64,000 nucleotides of DNA, from contig CAYOPZ010000015.1 in the NCBI GenBank assembly GCA_964406005.1, positions 1,170 to 65,169 on the forward strand. The letters run 5' to 3'. A model generated the notes under the pieces. It did no database searches. It saw only the letters and a program-made list of their open reading frames with translations, and was not told the origin of the DNA. A program made the position numbers and the translations under genes. Shown piece by piece: positions 736 through 18,380 of this stretch. Every line of letters starts with the position of its first letter. The first letter of the stretch is position 1. This DNA is from an uncultured Bacteroidaceae bacterium (GTDB taxonomy: Bacteria > Bacteroidota > Bacteroidia > Bacteroidales > SM23-62).

Positions 736-1848
736 TTATCTGCTTTGAAGGGATATTATACATTTTTTCGGAGCCGTGATTTTTACCCTGGAGGAAGTGG
801 TATTGTCCCTGCCGACCATGCCTCTCAAACGGGCACCGTCCGCTTCCTGGTCAATGATCTCGAGTTCACCGTATGAATCGGGCATTCTCATTACAACATC
901 TTCATGTCGGGTCACTTCCAGGATGAAACTCGCCTGCTTGTCGAATGTCATGTTCAGATCCGCACAATCGGTATTCACATTGATCAGGGAAAAACCTGCC
1001 GGTATGGTGTCCGCCTTCAGCACGCCGTACCTCGGGCTGAAATTTATTTCCCCGTCCATCCTGTAAAGCCAGATCTCCGAGAACCAGCTTTCCCCGAAAA
1101 AATTGTCCGTACGGCTGACCGTATATTTATCCCTCCTGGAATTCGTCTTCAGGATTCCTATATCGCCCAGCCTTAGTTTGGAGGACTTGCTCTCGATGGT
1201 CAGCTGTTTTGCCAGTGGGATTTCTATGTCTGCAAAGGAAACTGTAAGTGTGGCATTGGCAAGCTCATTAATGATGCCGTTACCGAAATTCAGGCTGATT
1301 CTGGAGTCGCCCGTAAGGGAATTCGCTTTCAGATCACCGTTGGAAAGATTTATACTGACACTGCCCTTCATGTCGTCAATATAGATATCGCCGTATTTGT
1401 TGGTAATGCTGATGTTCATTGCCCCGGGAACATGAACCGTATAATTTATTTCCACCCGGTTCCTGGACGGGATGATGGAATTGGAAAGATCCTTCAGATC
1501 TGAAAAAAAAGTATTGTACCTGTTCCCGAACCGTGTACCTGCAAGGATATAATACCGTGTGCCCGAGAATTCAAAATCAACATTCCTGCTGATCTTGGCC
1601 AGTCTTGAAGGACTGTTTGACTGGATATACAGGTCTATTTCAATGTGTACGGAATCCTTTTGCCAGGGGATTACATGAACTGTCCCGTATTTGTTGGAAA
1701 GTTCGAGCCGGGTTTCCGAAGAAGCCGGGAAGGATCTGTCTGTCTTCCTGCTTTCCGAATAGGTCTGTGCCTGAGCCAGGCTCCCTGCAACGATAAGGAA
1801 AGTCGCTGCCACCTTCAATTTTCTATAATTCATACTGTTCGTTTTCAT
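736..1848 (-). CDS. Exported beta-strand repeat (DUF4097/adhesin-like) protein
   Basis: Signal peptide (RKLKVAATFLIVAGSLAQA), repeated NKYG(T/D) motifs and short beta repeats; start taken at ATG 1848 (alternative 1833). Confidence 0.65.
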   Translation of the reverse strand: MKTNSMNYRKLKVAATFLIVAGSLAQAQTYSESRKTDRSFPASSETRLELSNKYGTVHVIPWQKDSVHIEIDLYIQSNSPSRLAKISRNVDFEFSGTRYYILAGTRFGNRYNTFFSDLKDLSNSIIPSRNRVEINYTVHVPGAMNISITNKYGDIYIDDMKGSVSINLSNGDLKANSLTGDSRISLNFGNGIINELANATLTVSFADIEIPLAKQLTIESKSSKLRLGDIGILKTNSRRDKYTVSRTDNFFGESWFSEIWLYRMDGEINFSPRYGVLKADTIPAGFSLINVNTDCADLNMTFDKQASFILEVTRHEDVVMRMPDSYGELEIIDQEADGARLRGMVGRDNTTSSRVKITAPKKCIISLQSR

Positions 1849-2386
1849 CTTCCATGTTATTGGCGTTACCATTCATGTATCCAAGAAGGTCTTCCAGTAT
1901 CTGGATCTTAAGGATGTAATTCTGGATCATCGCTTCCACAACCTTGTCGTTTGCCATGTTATCATAGAGGTCCCGCTGAAGCTCGGCGTAAACGCTGTCG
2001 AGTTCGGAAAGGTCTTCTGTGAGACCTTCCTTCAGTTCGGGACGATCTGAAAGAAGGGGTTCGATCTGGCTGATCTTTTCATTCAGGAGGTTGGTATAAT
2101 AAATCTCTGCCTCACGGAGTTCAGGGATTTCCCTGGCGGGCTCCCTTTTCCCGGCCATCCTTTCGGTTCCCCTCTGGTGAAGATACTTCTGCAGGGTGAA
2201 TGAGGCCGCGAAAATGATCACGACAGCTGCCGCACGCCAGAGGATCCCCTTCCAGCCAATGCGTGGTTTTTTCCTCTTTCGCATTTTTGAGGCGATTCCT
2301 GCCCAGAGTTTCTCCTCCGGTTCATGCAGGTCGAACCGGTCCCTGTTGTCACTGATGAATTCTTCTAACCTGTCTTTCATCCTCAT
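1823..2386 (-). CDS. Putative anti-sigma factor (single TM)
   Basis: Overlaps the ECF sigma gene; N-terminal LEEFISDNRDRFDLHEPEEKLWAGI, TM WRAAAVVIIFAASF, helical C-terminus. Confidence 0.65.
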   Translation of the reverse strand: MRMKDRLEEFISDNRDRFDLHEPEEKLWAGIASKMRKRKKPRIGWKGILWRAAAVVIIFAASFTLQKYLHQRGTERMAGKREPAREIPELREAEIYYTNLLNEKISQIEPLLSDRPELKEGLTEDLSELDSVYAELQRDLYDNMANDKVVEAMIQNYILKIQILEDLLGYMNGNANNMEDENEQYEL

Positions 2387-2927
2387 TGTTTTTCAGGATT
2401 TCCCTTAATTTTTGTTTTGCCCTCAGGTACTGACTTTTTGAGGTCGATTCCGATATATTCAGGATCTGTGAGATTTCCCTGTGGTCATAACCTTCAAGTG
2501 CGTAAAGGCTGAATATTATCCGGTAGCCTTCCGGCAACTGTTCCATTGCATCATGGATCTTTTGCACATCAAACCTGATGCTGTCGTAATCAACCTCCTG
2601 ATCCATTCCCGCCGCTTCCACATCCTGATCCTTATATACAAGCTCCACTTTTTTCCTTTTGATGACGTTAATGCATTTATTGATCACGATCCTCTTCAAC
2701 CAGGCACCAAATGACGATTCATAACGGAATGTCCCGAGTTTTGTGAAGGCATCACAGAATGAATCCTGTAAAAGATCTTCGGCTTCCTCCTTATTGTTTA
2801 ACATGCGCAGGCAGATGTTGTACATGGCTTTGGCATACAACCTGTACAGATGGAACTGAGCTGTGGAATCTCCCTCCTTGCATAATTCTATAATTTCCCT
2901 GTGTATGTCCTGGTAGACCGCAGCCAA
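2349..2927 (-). CDS. ECF-type RNA polymerase sigma-70 factor
   Basis: Region 2 (EAEDLLQDSF..FGAWLKRIVINKC) and region 4 (LPEGYRIIF..EGYDHREIS..ESTSKSQYLRAK). Confidence 0.93.
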   Translation of the reverse strand: MAAVYQDIHREIIELCKEGDSTAQFHLYRLYAKAMYNICLRMLNNKEEAEDLLQDSFCDAFTKLGTFRYESSFGAWLKRIVINKCINVIKRKKVELVYKDQDVEAAGMDQEVDYDSIRFDVQKIHDAMEQLPEGYRIIFSLYALEGYDHREISQILNISESTSKSQYLRAKQKLREILKNNEDERQVRRIHQ

Positions 2928-2950
2928 GGTTTACTTGTTTCTGGTAAAAA

Positions 2951-2978
2951 AGACAATTAATATATATCGGGGTTGCAT
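2951..2978 (-). promoter_or_regulatory. Putative ECF-dependent promoter ATGCAACC-N15-TGTCT
   Basis: Directly upstream of ECF gene; near-identical motif upstream of the second ECF gene (17397-17425). Confidence 0.6.
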
Positions 2979-9603: not shown

Positions 9604-10200
9604 TCATGAACCAAATCTGTTTTGAACTTCTGTCCAGTCAATTACGTTCCAGAATGCCTCGATATACTCGGGCCTCCTGTTCTGGTACTTTAAATAATAC
9701 GCATGTTCCCAGACATCGAGTCCGAGTATGGGCGTACCTTTTACCTCGGATATATCCATAAGCGTGTTGTCCTGATTCGGGGTGGATGCAACCACCAGAC
9801 CGCTGCCGGTTTTAACCAGCCAGGCCCATCCGGAGCCGAAACGGGTTGCCGCGGCATTGGAGAACTCCTTCTTAAAATCCTCGAAGCTTCCGAATGCGGT
9901 GTTGATCGCATTGAGGAGTGTTCCGCCGGGTTGTCCGCCACCATCGGGTGACATAACTTCCCAGAATAAATTGTGATTGTAATAACCCCCTCCGTTATTT
10001 CTGATTGCAGCGTTGCTTCCGGCCTTGGCGAGCAGTGTCTCAATGGTCTGGCCGTCAAGGGAACTGCCTTCCACTGCTGCATTCAATTTGCTGGTATAAC
10101 CCCCGTGATGCTTGTCGTGGTGGATTTCCATCGTCCGTGCATCTATATAGGGTTCAAGTGCGTTGAAATCGTATTTTAAATCAGGTAACTTAAATGCCAT
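9604..10200 (-). CDS. sodA: Superoxide dismutase (Mn/Fe), cytoplasmic
   Basis: [44 protein letters not shown] suggests Mn-type. Confidence 0.93.
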
Positions 10201-12407: not shown

Positions 12408-13652
12408 CTAAACGTTTCTCTGTACCCGCCTTAAATGTTCCAGCAATTCCAGTTTGCTGGAGGAAGGGACAAAGTGCGGATCCGTTTTTTGCAGGAAATC
12501 CCCGGCGGCCCGGTCAACCGGCAAACGATCGTAATGATCACGGTGTGCCTGATTAATGAATTTCAGCACCCTGAAAACATTGAACCAGCGAAAGAACCGT
12601 TTCCGGAATGCGGCTTCTCCCCGGCAGTTTTTCCTGATCTCCCCGATCCTGTCAAAAAATCCTGTTTTCAGGTTCTCACGAATGCTTGGCGGATAAGCGA
12701 GGAATTGTCTTTCAAGCTCTCCGGCCCGGGAAAGGTACATGAGCGGAACCGTAGCGAGGAAATCCCTGAGATCGTCAAACACCGCAGGATGGTATGTGCT
12801 TAGAGAGCGGATCTCCCCGGTCAGGAATTTGCTGGTCACGGGACCCGTACCGAAGGGGACACGCAAAGAAGGACGCGGGGACGGTTTCAGACAGGTGGTA
12901 TTAATCTCATGAAAATTGCCGAGGGGTATGATCTTATGCAGGAAATAGAAATCCTCTCCGGCCTTTCTTTTGTTCATGCCTCCCTGCTGTGCATACACAC
13001 CGGCCCTGACGGCGAAACAGGAACCCAGTGTATGGTAGGCATGGGGATGACCGGCATACCGGAGGGCCTGGATGTAATACCGGAGGTGTATCTCATACTG
13101 TATGATGCCCTGGTAGATCCTTTCAGGGTAGGCGTTGCCCTGCACCGGGTGCTCGAAGTAAATGGAACATGCATCGGATGCCGGGTTGTTCCTGAAATGC
13201 CTTTCAACCTCGGTAAGATAATTCTGTTCGCAGAGGGTGTCCGCATCCAGCGACAGAATGATGCCGTCCGGTCTATCCAGCCTGTCGAACATGCCTGCCG
13301 CATAATCCATGGCGATCTTCCTGGCATAGCCCGCTCCTGCCAGCTTTTCCGGGATCCCCTTTTCATGGAAGCAACGGATACGGAACCTGTCATTTGAGTG
13401 TTCTGCAGAGAAGGACAGGATTTGCTTTTCCGTTTTTTCGTTTGTATCGATTACTTCTGATCCCGCTTTTTCCGCGGAATTTAAGACCACTGCAACTTCC
13501 ACCGAGCCGTCCGGACGTGCACATTCTGTAAGGGCACTGAGCGTTTGCAGGATCCCCGGTTCACTGCTTGCCGGGATGGTGATTATAATGGAAAGGTCCT
13601 GTTGAGGGACCGGCCTATGGCGTACTGCCTTTTTCGGTTCTGTATTGTGCAT
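12408..13652 (-). CDS. GT-A fold (family 2-like) glycosyltransferase
   Basis: IIITIPA, GAGYARKIAMD, SLDADT (DxD), AGEDFYFL; start moved to MHNTE at 13652 (uncertain). Confidence 0.75.
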   Translation of the reverse strand: MHNTEPKKAVRHRPVPQQDLSIIITIPASSEPGILQTLSALTECARPDGSVEVAVVLNSAEKAGSEVIDTNEKTEKQILSFSAEHSNDRFRIRCFHEKGIPEKLAGAGYARKIAMDYAAGMFDRLDRPDGIILSLDADTLCEQNYLTEVERHFRNNPASDACSIYFEHPVQGNAYPERIYQGIIQYEIHLRYYIQALRYAGHPHAYHTLGSCFAVRAGVYAQQGGMNKRKAGEDFYFLHKIIPLGNFHEINTTCLKPSPRPSLRVPFGTGPVTSKFLTGEIRSLSTYHPAVFDDLRDFLATVPLMYLSRAGELERQFLAYPPSIRENLKTGFFDRIGEIRKNCRGEAAFRKRFFRWFNVFRVLKFINQAHRDHYDRLPVDRAAGDFLQKTDPHFVPSSSKLELLEHLRRVQRNV

Positions 13653-14232
13653 TGAGTCCCCCGAGAACGCTGTAGGTGATATCCAGTTCATCGTCTGCAA
13701 ACAACATGTTGTCTCCAAAGCTGTTGCTGAAGATAAACTCATAATTATAGTCGGTGTTGTAATCCTTGAGGTACTCCATTATGGCATTGATCAGTCGACG
13801 GTTGCGGACCTGTTCTTCTTCTGCCAGCTGAGAAGAAAGCTCATCCCTGAACTGAATCAGGTTCTGTTGCTCCTGAATCAGTTGCTCTTCAAGCCGGGCA
13901 GCTTCGCTGCGGGTCACCAGTCCCTTCTGAAGCTTGTCCTGATAATCCAGTGCGCTGGTTTGATAACGCTGGGACCGGCTGTTCAGTTCAGCTTCCATTT
14001 CCGATTGCTTGTCCATGAGCTCATCCTGCAGATCTGCATAGTAGTCATAATTGTTCAGCAGGGTATCGATGTTAATGAACGCGATCCTGCCGTACGTTCT
14101 GGCAGTACTCTCTGTAATTTCTGCCTGGGGAGATTCACGGGTCATGGCATCTTGGGGATGAAAATGCAGGTAATAAAGAACGCCTACGGCGAGTATCAGG
14201 ACGGCATTCAGGATCAGTGACAGGTTTTTCAT
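13615..14232 (-). CDS. OmpH/Skp family protein with N-terminal membrane anchor
   Basis: IAFINIDTLL, long coiled coil, LDITYSVLGGLN. Confidence 0.85.
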   Translation of the reverse strand: MKNLSLILNAVLILAVGVLYYLHFHPQDAMTRESPQAEITESTARTYGRIAFINIDTLLNNYDYYADLQDELMDKQSEMEAELNSRSQRYQTSALDYQDKLQKGLVTRSEAARLEEQLIQEQQNLIQFRDELSSQLAEEEQVRNRRLINAIMEYLKDYNTDYNYEFIFSNSFGDNMLFADDELDITYSVLGGLNAQYRTEKGSTP

Positions 14233-14324: not shown

Positions 14325-15305
14325 TTAAAACTCCGGACACGGGACCATATGGCGTCTGGTCTTCTTCCGTGTGGTTTCAAACTCATAGATCAGAGCAATT
14401 TCATGAGATCCCCCCGTGCTTCCGACCAGTTTGCTGATTGTAAAATCGTAGCTATAGCCCACACTGAACTGTTCTATCTTGTAACCCACCAGGAAAATGA
14501 TGGCATCTCCCCTGTTTTCATTATTGATGATGGGTATTCCGCGGTACCAGATGCCGAACACAAGGGGATTCTTGTACCAGTACAATCCAATGTCCAGTTG
14601 ATTTATGGAAAACTGGTTGCGGAACAGGGCGGCCAGGGAAAGGGTTTCATCCACCGGCTTCAGCAGTCTTCCTTTCCGGATTACCTGGTATCCTCCGAAT
14701 GCTGAAATTTTCATGGGCCACTTCTCTTCCTCGTTCCCGTAAAGGGATAGATTCGGTCTGAACAGGTGGTCTATGGCAAACCCTCCCCAGGCCCTGTCGG
14801 AGTATCCAAGCAAGGAGAGCGAAGCATCGATGTCCCCTTTATTTTTCAGGGGCGGGATCTCTATGGTTGGGGTCGTACCGCCGGGTGAGATCTGGTCTCC
14901 CCACAGAAGCTTGGAAAAATTAATCCCCTGCTGGGTATATAACATATGAAGCCCGGGGCGAATGTGCCAGACGTCGGTAAGCTTGATGTCATAGGAGTAC
15001 TGAAAGCCAACACTGGTGGTACTGTAGTCTCCCGATCCGGCCACATCCCTGAATATCAGGACTCCCAGGCCTGAATTGAAATTGGAAAAATAGTGGTCGT
15101 AGGAAAACGCATAGGTTACGTAGGTCCCGGGAAATTTCGGCCACTGATTCCGGTATGTGGTGGCGATCCTGTGTTGCTGGGTGGCGCCTGCAAAAGAAGG
15201 TGCGAGGTAGAGGGGAACGGAATAAAACTGGGAAAACTGAGGGTCCTGTCCATAAGAAAAAAGGCATAATAATGTCAGGGATAATATGATGAATGGTCTC
15301 CTCAC
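14325..15305 (-). CDS. PorP/SprF family T9SS outer-membrane beta-barrel
   Basis: Signal peptide then QDPQFSQFY..LAPSFAG, YRNQW, GYSYDF..GGSHEI; TATCTTTG promoter at 15384-15391. Confidence 0.9.
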   Translation of the reverse strand: MRRPFIILSLTLLCLFSYGQDPQFSQFYSVPLYLAPSFAGATQQHRIATTYRNQWPKFPGTYVTYAFSYDHYFSNFNSGLGVLIFRDVAGSGDYSTTSVGFQYSYDIKLTDVWHIRPGLHMLYTQQGINFSKLLWGDQISPGGTTPTIEIPPLKNKGDIDASLSLLGYSDRAWGGFAIDHLFRPNLSLYGNEEEKWPMKISAFGGYQVIRKGRLLKPVDETLSLAALFRNQFSINQLDIGLYWYKNPLVFGIWYRGIPIINNENRGDAIIFLVGYKIEQFSVGYSYDFTISKLVGSTGGSHEIALIYEFETTRKKTRRHMVPCPEF

Positions 15306-15526
15306 TTGCCTGGTTGAGAATCTATTAATCCACTAATATAGCCAAAAACAGCCAGTTTGAAAATATCCTTTTTTATGCATATCCAAAGATAAAGATATCA
15401 ACATCTTAAACGGAGAAGTCGCATTTTTGGTTTCATTGTCCCGGACAAATCCATGATCAGGAGTTTAGAGAGGACAGGGAATGATGTATACAGAAAGCTC
15501 CGGTCCGGTCCGGGTTCAGAAGCGGA

Positions 15527-16828
15527 TTAGTATTTTTTGATCAGAGTGACATCTCCGCTCTGCACAAAGGTCTGTCCATTGCTGAATTTCCCCCTGGCCT
15601 TCCAGATATATACGCCCTGTGAGGCAAGTTGCTGCCTGTAGTAACCGTCCCATCCGATCCGGAGTTCGTTACTTTCGAATATCTGAATCCCGAAACGGTT
15701 GAAAATCCTCAGCTGATATTCAATAAGTTCTCCAGTTACAACGGGATGAAAAACGGTATTGCCGATGTCGTTCTCTTCGTAGTATCCGTCGCAGGGCCCG
15801 TTGAGATTGGGTGTGAAGGCGTTGGGAAACACAATGTCATTGGCCTGGCTGGAAAATGCATTATAGATGATCAGCGAATCGAAGCACTGATTTTCATTCC
15901 ATACCTTAAGTTTGACATGATAGTTCCCGGACTGGTCGTAATAATGGACGGGATCCGAGAGTCCGGACTTTTGCTGATCGCCGAAATCCCATTCATAGAA
16001 ATCGGCCGATTTGGAATAATTGTAGAAATAAACGGGATGGCCGTCTGCCAGGGCAGGATATTCTTCAAACTCAAAAAGAGCCTTTGGTGTTTCAAAAACC
16101 CGGATGGTTCCCTGCTTCATATATTCAAGCCCGTCTTTCCCGGTCATCCTGAGGATCACGGTATGATCGCCGCTCTCATCAAATACGTATGACGGATTGG
16201 CTTCCGTTGAACTGCCCCCGTCACCGAAAGTCCATAAGAATTTTTCGGCATTTTCCGATTCGTTGTGGAATTCCACGGCCAGCGGGGCACAACCGCTTTG
16301 CCTGCTGGCTGAAAAGCCGATCCTCGCCGGAGGCGCATCCTTGCTTTCTGCGACCGGTTCCTTTCCTTCCGGTGATTGTGATTTCCTTTTGTTTGACGGT
16401 TCCCGGTCTGCTCCCTCCTGTTCGGGAACGGAAAGCATTCTGTCGGGCAGGGCTGTTTCCTTGGGTTGCGCTTCTGCCGGACTTTCGGATTCCCCGGGAT
16501 TTCCGGAATTCACGATATCAGGACCGGTGACTGCCTTTGGCATATCAGGGGATTGTTCTGCGGGCAGGGGACTTTGCCGGGAAACAGGATTATTCGCGGC
16601 TTCGGGCCCGTTGCTGGCGGGTGATGCAAAGAACAGCATTCCTCCTGTTGCGACGGCAAGTACTGCCGCGAGATAATAGACATTGAATGTGTTGAAGCTG
16701 AACGAGAAGAACTGCCTCCACATAATCCTTGTCCGGATTCCTGACCAGAGCCCGGGGGAGGGGTTCACAATATAGTTGTCGAATTGTGAACGAAAAAGTT
16801 CTTCAATATTTAATTTATTCCCGCTCAT
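15527..16828 (-). CDS. Anti-sigma-like membrane protein with two PKD domains and a T9SS type-B C-terminal domain
   Basis: N-term IEELFRSQFDNYIVNPSPGLWSGI, TM about aa 50-68, P/S/E-rich linker, PKD (WTFGDG, WDFGD), CTD PNAFTPN..IFNRFG..GWDG..GVYIW..GDVTLIK. Confidence 0.8.
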   Translation of the reverse strand: MSGNKLNIEELFRSQFDNYIVNPSPGLWSGIRTRIMWRQFFSFSFNTFNVYYLAAVLAVATGGMLFFASPASNGPEAANNPVSRQSPLPAEQSPDMPKAVTGPDIVNSGNPGESESPAEAQPKETALPDRMLSVPEQEGADREPSNKRKSQSPEGKEPVAESKDAPPARIGFSASRQSGCAPLAVEFHNESENAEKFLWTFGDGGSSTEANPSYVFDESGDHTVILRMTGKDGLEYMKQGTIRVFETPKALFEFEEYPALADGHPVYFYNYSKSADFYEWDFGDQQKSGLSDPVHYYDQSGNYHVKLKVWNENQCFDSLIIYNAFSSQANDIVFPNAFTPNLNGPCDGYYEENDIGNTVFHPVVTGELIEYQLRIFNRFGIQIFESNELRIGWDGYYRQQLASQGVYIWKARGKFSNGQTFVQSGDVTLIKKY

Positions 16829-17378
16829 TTGTGTTTTCCGGGATTTTCTTTAGTGAACCGAGTTTTTTCCTTATCAGGCTTTTTGCCCTTGAATATTGTG
16901 ATTTTGAAGTATTTACGTCAATCCTCAACAGGTCTGCGATCTCTTTATGCCTGTACCCTTCGATGGCATAAAGATTGAATACCATCCGGTAACCGTCAGG
17001 CAGGGATTTTATAATGCTGAACAACTCCTCCCTGGTAAAATCGGCTGTATCCAGTTCCATGCCTTCTATGTCCGTTTCCCTGATGTCTTCAATATCCTGG
17101 TGATAATGGTGCTTCAGGTTCCTGTGATAATGTGTAATGGCTGTGTTTATCATTATTTTTCTCATCCAGTTGATAAATGAACCCTTTCCTGCAAAATCCC
17201 TTATGTTAAAATAGACCTTGATCAAACCGTCCTGAAGAATATCTTCCGCTTCATCCCGTCTTCCCGAGTACCGGATACATACTCCCAGGAGTATCGGTGC
17301 AAAACGCTCATACAAGGCTTTCTGAGCTCTCCTGTCATTGCGGCAGCATCCCTCAATTATGTCCTTCTCATCCAGCAT
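16815..17378 (-). CDS. ECF-type RNA polymerase sigma-70 factor
   Basis: RAQKALYE, EAEDILQDG, GSFINWMRKIMINTA, LPDGYRMVFNLYAIEGYRHKEIA, TSKSQYSRAK. Confidence 0.93.
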   Translation of the reverse strand: MLDEKDIIEGCCRNDRRAQKALYERFAPILLGVCIRYSGRRDEAEDILQDGLIKVYFNIRDFAGKGSFINWMRKIMINTAITHYHRNLKHHYHQDIEDIRETDIEGMELDTADFTREELFSIIKSLPDGYRMVFNLYAIEGYRHKEIADLLRIDVNTSKSQYSRAKSLIRKKLGSLKKIPENTNERE

Positions 17379-17396
17379 ATATTTTAACCATCGTTA

Positions 17397-17425
17397 AGAC
17401 AAATATTTTTTTCAAATGGTTGCAT
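17397..17425 (-). promoter_or_regulatory. Putative ECF-dependent promoter ATGCAACC-N16-TGTCT
   Basis: Same motif as at 2951-2978, directly upstream of ECF start. Confidence 0.6.
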
Positions 17426-17614: not shown

Positions 17615-17642
17615 CATGTATTCACGAAAACCAAGCATAGAT

Positions 17643-18380
17643 ATGAAGAAAAGAGATTTCCTTAAGAAAAGTGCGATTCTCACTGTTGGCGGTACCCTGG
17701 CTGCCTCATCCGGGGTCGGTCTCAAAGCTGCGAAAACGGCCGGACGGAAAAACCGGAGGGCCGGTATGGAATATGAACTGCCTGAATTACCGTATGCATA
17801 TGATGCCCTGGAACCCTATATCGATGCCCTCACCATGGAGATTCACCATGACAAGCATCATGCCGGCTATACCCGGAAACTGAATGCGGCAGTGAGCGAA
17901 TATGGACTGGAGGACACAGCCATCCAGGACCTGTTCAGCCGGATAAGCCGCCAGCCCTTGGCCGTCAGGAACAACGGGGGCGGATTTTACAATCATAAGT
18001 TGTTCTGGAAGTGGATGGCACCTCCCGGCAAGGGTGGCGGCGGCGAACCCGCAGGTGAATTGCTGAAGGCCATTGAGACCGGCTTTGGCAGTTACGATGA
18101 TTTCAGGGAGGAATTCTCCTCGGCCGCTGCCACAAGGTTTGGCTCGGGCTGGGCCTGGCTGGTAAAAACCGACAGCGGGCTGGTGGTTACATCCACCCCG
18201 AACCAGGACAATCCCCTCATGGACGTGGTTGAAACGAGAGGTATCCCCCTGCTGGGCATTGATGTATGGGAACATGCCTATTACCTTAAATACCAGAACA
18301 GGAGGGCGGACTATATTGCGGCTTTCTGGAATGTGGTCAACTGGGATTTCGTCAGCCAGAGGTTCAATAATAATATGTAA
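17643..18380 (+). CDS. Superoxide dismutase (Mn/Fe) with Tat-like signal peptide
   Basis: [21 protein letters not shown].. then full SOD ([33 protein letters not shown]); start moved to ATG 17643. Confidence 0.9.

Follow-up and report, generated by a model that had tools for sequence, protein, structure and literature searches.

A predicted ECF21-type anti-sigma factor carrying a type IX secretion cargo tail, and its likely link to giant adhesins in uncultured Bacteroidales

A 64,000-nucleotide stretch of contig CAYOPZ010000015.1 (assembly GCA_964406005.1, positions 1,170 to 65,169) from an uncultured Bacteroidaceae bacterium, called the window here and belonging to genome G000, carries on its minus strand three open reading frames (ORFs) in the order extracytoplasmic function (ECF) sigma factor (P0002), 433-aa protein (P0001) and porP (P0003), the first two overlapping by 14 nt (16815-16828). 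P0002 is assigned to the ECF21-like sigma factors, and P0001 is likely an anti-sigma factor of the Dma lineage whose outer-membrane barrel has been replaced by a type IX secretion system (T9SS) cargo tail, a C-terminal domain (CTD) of type B. This tethered copy of a cargo tag likely decides when large surface adhesins are made. In the mechanism preferred here, given a probability of roughly 45%, P0001 would be an ECF21/Dma-lineage anti-sigma bearing a tethered decoy of a giant adhesin's tail, and capture of the decoy by free T9SS or carrier would release the sigma factor. The parts of the locus are as follows.

17396..17424, minus strand: predicted autoregulated ECF21-type promoter (-35 TGCAACC at 17424-17418, 17-nt spacer, -10 GTCTT at 17400-17396).
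16815..17378, minus strand: ECF sigma factor P0002, ECF21-like, 187 aa (Pfam and NCBIfam scans; tree with barrel-partnered sigmas).
15527..16828, minus strand: predicted anti-sigma P0001, 433 aa, with T9SS type-B cargo tail (domain scans, homologue alignment, AlphaFold2).
16682..16828, minus strand: cytoplasmic N-terminal unit of P0001, aa 1-49, with predicted sigma-binding helices and a conserved aromatic stretch before the transmembrane (TM) segment (profile, gene order).
16625..16681, minus strand: predicted single uncleaved TM signal-anchor, aa 50-68, N-in (hydropathy and motif count, AlphaFold2).
16334..16615, minus strand: P/S/E/A-rich disordered periplasmic linker, aa 72-165 (conservation; predicted local distance difference test, pLDDT).
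15863..16333, minus strand: two PKD domains, aa 166-322 (Pfam, AlphaFold2).
15530..15838, minus strand: type-B CTD, aa 331-433, of the subtype of an orphan 6,528-aa adhesin (CHU_C, CTD identity).
14325..15305, minus strand: PorP/SprF-family carrier barrel P0003, predicted carrier for anti-sigma and giant adhesin (Pfam, NCBIfam).
14328..14369, minus strand: the carrier's C-terminal tail, ending C-P-x-F and holding one conserved Cys (91 clade proteins compared).

P0002 matches Pfam Sigma70_r2 and r4_2 and holds sigma regions 2 and 4 only, as in ECF21, while P0001 matches PKD_4, PKD and CHU_C (33.4 bits against a cut-off of 27) and P0003 matches Pfam PorP_SprF at 210 bits and NCBIfam TIGR03519 at 229, above 90.55. 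The ORF positions, the overlap and the domain content of the three genes, as given in a preliminary description of this DNA, are reproduced by ORF calls and Pfam, and its expectation of a PorP/SprF match is confirmed.

Topology was assessed by hydropathy and motif count in 107 full-length homologues of P0001, found among the best 120 of 1274 matches. The TM segment, residues 50-68 in P0001, starts between residues 43 and 61 across the homologues, and all 107 obey the positive-inside rule. Near the TM end, an A-x-A site is present in 3/107; a Met stands no more than 12 residues ahead of the TM segment in 9/107, while P23, W28, F40 and N49 are invariant. This pattern indicates that the upstream start is real and that there is no conserved signal peptidase site, so that P0001 lacks a recognizable cleavable Sec signal peptide, as had been claimed, and is read as N-in and uncleaved. 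A downstream start at Met36, which would give a signal peptide, was rejected, since Met occupies that column in only 21/107 homologues and residues 9-28 are conserved.

The AlphaFold2 model of P0001 places helices at 8-16, 27-41 and 50-68 and three beta domains at the C-terminal end, with pLDDT below 50 for residues 72-158. The linker is lowly conserved in sequence (column conservation 0.22) and conserved in length, with 97-129 aa (median 112; 93/107 measurable) between the TM end and the first PKD strand. A linker of about 100 residues has a contour length of about 35 nm and could cross the periplasm only if stretched. The CTD is the best-conserved region of the family (0.72), and the PKD domains are conserved at 0.63-0.66. 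The order of soluble N-terminus, one TM segment, disordered linker, two PKD domains and type-B CTD proposed earlier is therefore borne out by Pfam, the homologues and AlphaFold2. Against a profile of 15 barrels P0001 scores -1.8 bits, PKD-PKD-CHU_C standing in place of the barrel. Broader searches were less informative: Foldseek matched only tandem Ig-like adhesins such as GhpA, the ESM Atlas returned unnamed Bacteroidota clusters (one termed 'porin family fragment'), and PDB sequence searches gave the N-terminal profile nothing better than E 0.4, which is not meaningful, and matched PorP not at all.

Homology and gene order lend good support to the putative anti-sigma role of P0001. A profile built on the first 70 residues of the P0001 family, termed A2, has matches in 71/401 genomes of the phylum, and the 29 best non-self matches examined (of 83 in the 401) all lie directly behind a P0002-like ECF gene. 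Scanning 22 of these 29 assigned 12 to an outer-membrane barrel family at E <= 0.05 (5 above cut-off), 1 to PKD plus CHU_C and 9 to short proteins without such a domain. Among the 12,438 ORFs of G000, the top two matches other than P0001 itself end in a barrel and are encoded behind the two nearest sigma paralogues. Of 1215 representatives that match the N-terminal profile, the best 150 comprise 56 barrel-ended, 49 CTD-ended, 42 short or fragmentary and 3 other proteins, by profiles built in this analysis; no anti-sigma-PorP fusion was seen among these top 150, and longer fusions containing residues 1-75 were sought without success, which counts as weak evidence.

The barrel-ended relatives connect P0001 to a characterized family. 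The N-terminal 40 aa of Dma1 are reported to bind and pull down Das1, an ECF21 sigma factor, and full-length Dma1 to span both membranes and to be processed in stationary phase (PMC10927553). The N-terminal segment of the P0001 family aligned by hhalign to six NigD-ECF-barrel loci, synteny proxies for Dma1 rather than Dma1 itself, with a score of 21.6 (P 9.5e-5, probability 59%), against 16.5 for the best of 60 column shuffles and 13.0 for a FecR-type control. The anti-sigma identity suggested in the preliminary description thus gains support from the match to the Dma1 proxies and from gene order, and its remark that no characterized example exists must be revised, since the Dma/Reo anti-sigmas of ECF21 are characterized relatives (PMC10927553). 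The likeness it saw to the other anti-sigma of the window is real and weak (10 bits; E 0.0008 among genes behind G000 sigma factors, E 0.4 genome-wide). That second system, in window 1823-2977 (minus strand), pairs an ECF gene at 2349-2927 with a short 187-aa TM partner and lies on a distant branch of the sigma tree.

In a quick tree of sigma factors, 23 sigmas with a CTD-type partner form one branch (support 89), nested in branches (97) otherwise holding barrel-ended or short partners, and a further four sigmas, whose partners have other type-B tails, are spread over two more positions in the tree. P0002 is placed among barrel-partnered sigmas and the Dma1 synteny proxies, the five nearest barrel calls resting on a profile of this analysis (E 1e-7 to 1e-17) and not on Pfam. 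Replacement of a barrel by a cargo tail probably happened more than once, and the presence of CTD tails on three or more separate branches of sigmas suggests that the fusion was selected for. In L079, L084, L085 and L087 (G420, G058, G055 and G045), anti-sigmas on other sigma branches carry ordinary type-B tails, and independent origins are possible; in G420 and G058 several large cargo genes follow. A split form in L382, L383 and L384 (G166, G146 and G162) consists of ECF, a short tail-less anti-sigma, a separate barrel-like gene and a ~350-aa type-B CTD protein, and barrel-type relatives (P0147, P0150, P0178, P0205; L371, L372) carry the N-terminal anti-sigma motif in two to six tandem copies.

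The tail of P0001 points to a particular adhesin. G000 encodes an orphan giant (G000:C1:39400-58986) of 6,528 aa with Ig and PKD domains and no neighbouring porP. Over its last 100 aa the P0001 CTD is 50% identical to the giant and 20-34% identical to the other nine type-B CTDs of G000, and the PKD pair resembles the CTD-proximal stalk of giants, with ~40% identity over aa 165-432. The CTD of the giant has the same CHU_C score as that of P0001 and no TIGR04131 match at E 0.001. In a quick CTD tree, the anti-sigma CTDs form one branch of 68 rows with no cargo inside (support 97), within the subtype of the giants; 16 of the 68 rows were labelled fragments by script, yet are known orthologues. 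This cargo-free branch rules out that each host recently copied the CTD from its own giant. Within G000:C1:8214-58986 the giant lies just beyond a polysaccharide cluster, whose first gene also has the promoter, and similar polysaccharide genes flank the giant in G001, G021, G024, G551, G556 and G563. Elsewhere, a 4639-aa ORF at the end of G000 contig C39 and a type-B cargo at the start of C13 carry the same repeat, so that the two are probably one gene of more than 5500 aa with its own porP.

The age and conservation of this tail bear on the reading in which it is irrelevant to signalling, P0001 being either an ordinary small surface protein cut after export or the relic of a fusion to an adjoining adhesin gene, and the sigma factor answering general envelope proteolysis. 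Related sigmas with tail-less partners, the cargo genes that frequently stand directly behind these ECF operons and would ease fusion, and one genome without a matching porP (G046, below) are in its favour. It is nevertheless considered quite unlikely, as the CTD is the most conserved region of the family, the anti-sigma CTDs form one old cargo-free branch, and such tails appear on at least three sigma branches. A tail that acts in signalling, as a decoy of the giant's own, is preferred.

The predicted ECF/anti-sigma/PorP family is conserved in uncultured Bacteroidales. A GTDB survey kept 80 loci of 571 relatives, 49 of which hold the short anti-sigma protein; these 49 are all records of metagenome-assembled genomes, and no cultured carrier was seen among the 80. 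The ECF gene is immediately upstream of the anti-sigma gene in 46/49, the remaining 3 being cut by contig ends. Downstream stand a co-oriented porP in 34, a giant ORF in 3, a contig end in 7 and another gene in 5. Among the 22 loci that belong to the family of the window, 14 have porP next, 1 has a giant and then porP, 2 have another gene and 5 are cut. Synteny, on which the preliminary description had staked its proposal, is thus conserved. The secretion machine itself is present in G000, with SprA, GldK and GldN found over family scans, GldB above its cut-off and a GldJ-like protein just under; a family search also identified RseP.

Gene order further suggests that the carrier is shared. The order ECF, anti-sigma, giant, porP occurs in G003, G050 and G566; in G002 and G006 a porP of the P0003 clade lies behind a giant-type tail, and in G009 and G013 it stands alone. 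Each of 17 genomes with adjacent anti-sigma and porP genes, hand-picked from the 80 loci, encodes one porP of the P0003 clade (17/17), and 15/17 have further CTDs of the same subtype elsewhere. P0003 is therefore probably a carrier common to the anti-sigma and the giant adhesin, and not the private partner of the 433-aa protein that had been supposed. In F. johnsoniae, three orphan CTDs that are more than 44% identical are reported to use one carrier, and carriers are apparently not recycled and apparently required stoichiometrically (PMC12618676). The idea that porP has a housekeeping promoter of its own was rejected; a TAnnTTTG box is present in the window's gap, but in only 3/36 gaps.

A Cys within the last 12 residues is found in 84/91 PorPs of the P0003 clade. 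The seven Cys-less tails (L201, L202, L204, L209, L230, L236 and L124) come from six Marinilabiliaceae-labelled loci and G053 and have a basic run at the end. The tail cysteines of SprF and PorG are reported to bond to Cys343 of GldK, for SprF only with loaded cargo (PMC12635249), and GldK of G000 has a Cys at position 343, matched by position number only. The tail of P0003 has a single Cys, not the Cys-x-Cys of SprF. A quick tree of 49 PorPs, which rules out P0003 as an SprF orthologue, sets it on a branch separate from the flavobacterial C-x-C carriers, so that the likeness to the SprF/GldK link is an analogy. G000 holds a second Cys-tail PorP (C-P-R-N end) before a gldJ-like gene at G000:C17:32038-34668, with no cargo adjoining; divergent from it are 1306-aa and 420-aa genes, presumably porU and porV. 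In L339 and L340 (G182 and G396), a PorP/SprF domain stands at the head of open frames of 1165 and 1489 aa, in which there is a long repeat of helical character.

The predicted promoter links the sigma factor to the same adhesin. TGCAACC-N17-GTC(T/A) lies upstream of the ECF gene in 63/65 loci, with 61 distinct sites; one of the two misses is a slice edge and one is real, and some loci are duplicates. The window's site fits the ECF21 consensus, reported as GCAACC (-35) and CGTCT (-10) (PMC7826278), with the C ahead of GTCT not conserved. The strict motif has 15 matches in G000, 11 of them intergenic, and 0 in a reversed control, while spacers of 15, 16, 18 and 19 yield 5-9 matches. In a weight-matrix scan of G000, the second-best site lies 60 nt before the giant adhesin. 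The 25 genomes of the window's family hold 134 matches versus 14 in the reversed control. The motif precedes the orphan giant in 11/11 genomes in which its 5' end is covered (G000, G008, G021, G024, G551, G552, G553, G555, G556, G558, G563); in the assemblies five of the giants are broken up, and at one site the sequence is TGCAACT. The 5' end is cut by a contig end in G005, G014 and G015, and the count leaves out G001, G549, G560 and G562. By comparison, 0/9 cargo genes of the same subtype carry the motif in G031, G034, G052, G053, G059 and G060, genomes with no close P0002 match in the search. It is also lacking before 20 long same-subtype cargo genes in named GTDB loci, the sigma content of those genomes being unchecked.

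The predicted targets in G000 are the ECF gene itself; the 6,528-aa giant; a 1835-aa PKD protein with a type-A CTD; SprB-repeat type-B cargo of 2200 and 1355 aa; a Calx-beta protein of more than 4639 aa; LamG proteins of more than 1391 and 586 aa; a sugar transferase that comes first in a polysaccharide cluster; a DUF1573 protein; and a 284-aa protein without assignment. Comparable targets occur in G014 and G555. Genes of at least 1000 aa follow 6/11 intergenic sites, against a base rate of 96/2554 genes. In G000 the motif is missing ahead of sprA, of the porP-gldKLMN operon and of the porP-gldJ pair, and for that reason a logic in which export licenses cargo is favoured over one that repairs the machine. 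In the FlgM/FliA export checkpoint, the soluble anti-sigma FlgM is removed by export. A similar logic gains support here, because the predicted regulon is T9SS cargo, including the adhesin that shares the tail of P0001.

A regulon of this kind resembles an attachment programme, which invites a reading of P0001 as a surface sensor. Carrier-displayed PKD domains would sense contact or a ligand, the T9SS merely placing them, and load on the chain would free the sigma factor for an adhesin and polysaccharide programme. The PKD domains are indeed conserved, and the carrier's tail Cys together with GldK Cys343 could couple the carrier to a moving track (PMC12635249). The PKD pair, however, is like the giants' CTD-proximal stalk and not like a separate binding domain, and one member, from G420, has a single PKD match; such a sensor is regarded as improbable.

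In the preferred decoy mechanism, P0001 would insert N-in through its uncleaved signal-anchor, with residues 1-41 holding the sigma factor. The T9SS would recognize the CTD and thread it towards the Cys-tail PorP. Because a chain anchored in the inner membrane cannot leave intact, the linker would be stretched and cut, and intramembrane proteolysis would then free the sigma factor, which would activate its own operon (more carrier, more decoy), the giant, other adhesins and the polysaccharide cluster. The exported giant would remain on the same carrier, compete with the decoy and turn the switch down, leaving adhesin output matched to export and anchoring capacity. In reported work, the T9SS hands cargo via SprA to a carrier that is docked, and the motor chain supplies the energy by which the pair is ejected (PMC12635249); type-B cargo is described as staying on its carrier, probably at the cell surface (PMC9143113). 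A working machine with free carrier is most likely the ON state, because the regulon holds cargo and not the core machine.

The opposite sign was also weighed. Intact P0001, retained by the T9SS or by the carrier (from the periplasmic side, for instance), might keep the sigma factor off, and carrier loss, cargo saturation or outer-membrane damage might free or degrade P0001, turning the sigma factor on and producing more carrier. The nesting of CTD-type sigmas among barrel-type sigmas, the double-membrane span and stationary-phase processing of Dma1 (PMC10927553), the conserved linker length and the co-oriented porP behind the ECF in 34/49 loci would all suit this arrangement. Its output would suit it less: the predicted regulon is mostly giant cargo, the core T9SS genes examined lack the motif, and inducing cargo during export failure would presumably be harmful. 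Type-B cargo probably binds its carrier at the cell surface (PMC9143113), a place that an intact chain anchored in the inner membrane can reach only by passing through the outer membrane. This reversed control is judged unlikely, and release upon capture of the decoy is retained.

Several observations nevertheless weigh against the decoy mechanism. In NCBIfam TIGR04131, the type-B profile that the preliminary description had named, the P0001 CTD scores 27.1, under the cut-off of 35, so that the type-B assignment stands by CHU_C and not by this family. The consensus motif is absent from 11 smaller same-subtype cargo genes (~700-860 aa), a degenerate site occurring in 2/11, and no motif precedes the same-subtype giants with their own porP in G018 and G565, genomes that hold the system. 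Barrel-type relatives with the same promoter also adjoin T9SS cargo genes, so that an adhesin regulon needs no CTD decoy, and related sigmas exist whose partners are devoid of a C-terminal domain, so that signalling may not need the tail. Some of the sites could be read by other ECF21-like paralogues; before the second ECF gene of the window, identical boxes stand 16 nt apart (TGCAACC-N16-GTC at 2977). The two barrel-partnered paralogues of G000 have a different -10, read by eye. G046, 98% complete, combines an ECF, a CTD-ended anti-sigma and a T9SS with no porP of the P0003 clade in the search. Finally, the sign of control is taken from regulon content alone, kin are not independent, and the sigma and CTD trees are quick trees.

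A motor-powered elaboration of the decoy mechanism seems rather unlikely as a whole. A free carrier would capture the decoy. Once loaded, this carrier would either form a disulfide, by way of its tail Cys, with the GldK track in motion or be expelled by the energy chain of the T9SS; the pull on the anchored linker would trigger cleavage and free the sigma factor. The cell would thereby measure free carrier and working motor jointly before making adhesins of several thousand residues, and the design would have arisen more than once by exchange of a Dma barrel for a cargo tail.

Of the neighbouring genes, an OmpH/Skp-like gene and a GT2 glycosyltransferase lie downstream of porP in window 12408-14232 (minus strand) and are kept with porP in many relatives, whatever gene precedes. 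The ORF at 17616-18380, divergent from the ECF gene and with a twin-arginine-like N-terminus, adjoins the ECF gene in relatives too; it is similar to a second ORF at 9604-10200, and we take both to be Fe/Mn superoxide dismutase-like.

The system bears on how Bacteroidota match very large adhesin output to T9SS capacity and to carriers that are not recycled, and a three-gene switch with a predicted promoter and named targets makes this question testable. The T9SS regulators in the literature found (PorXY-SigP and PorA) are described there as controlling the machine and not type-B cargo. If the decoy mechanism is true, P0001 would count as a T9SS substrate from which no signal peptide is cleaved, and as a domain swap found in nature that reveals the role of the outer end of Dma-type anti-sigmas. 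No description of a CTD-bearing anti-sigma was found in literature listings and abstracts, from which full texts and subscription papers may differ, nor in the available text of PMC13088901, PMC9308784 and PMC7712824; the ECF classification supplement has 0 matches for 'PKD' in its accessible part (PMC7826278). New here are the promoter link to an adhesin that shares the tail, the gene orders that point to a shared carrier, the exchange of barrel for tail and the cysteine at the end of the carrier.

Known systems share parts of this arrangement. As with FlgM/FliA, the sigma factor would be gated by a secretion substrate, and the genes under its control, as far as promoter sites alone predict them, would encode cargo for the machine concerned; unlike soluble FlgM, P0001 is predicted to be membrane-anchored, with tag and anti-sigma on one tethered chain. 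PorA of the PorA-PorXY-SigP pathway of P. gingivalis is likewise a CTD protein proposed to report T9SS function, but it acts via a two-component system and controls T9SS components (PMC7712824). The SprB-SprF, PG1035-PorP and Fjoh_1677 shared-carrier systems resemble the locus in their type-B CTD, PKD stalk and porP directly downstream (PMC9143113, PMC12618676), and that of Fjoh_1677 also in the use of one carrier for similar CTDs (PMC12618676). Described T9SS cargo, however, has a Sec signal peptide, where P0001 appears to have an uncleaved anchor and a cytoplasmic regulatory domain. The SprF/PorG-GldK pairing offers a carrier with Cys in its periplasmic tail (PMC12635249), and G000 GldK has a Cys at 343 by position number; P0003 has a single Cys in place of C-x-C and belongs to another PorP branch.

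Among sigma systems, the ECF21 group shares its occurrence in Bacteroidetes, a single-TM anti-sigma at +1 and the GCAACC/CGTCT promoter, and some of its subgroups encode a separate barrel at +2; the classification supplement, as far as it is accessible, describes no cargo-tail partner and no +2 PorP (PMC7826278). The closest relatives are the Dma family, namely Dma1/Das1 and Dma2/Das2 of Bacteroides thetaiotaomicron and Reo/EcfO of B. fragilis, with an ECF21-type sigma (PMC10927553). They have in common with P0001 a short N-terminal anti-sigma segment, one TM segment and a long disordered linker, the N-terminal unit being the one found in barrel-ended proteins. Dma ends in an 8-stranded barrel, whereas P0001 ends in PKD-PKD-type-B CTD, any contact of P0001 with the outer membrane would pass through the T9SS and a separate PorP, and its predicted regulon consists of adhesins where that of Dma is NigD and vesiculation. 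Fitting neither Dma, since it has no barrel, nor ordinary type-B cargo, since it has no signal peptide, P0001 would appear to work like a hybrid of the two.

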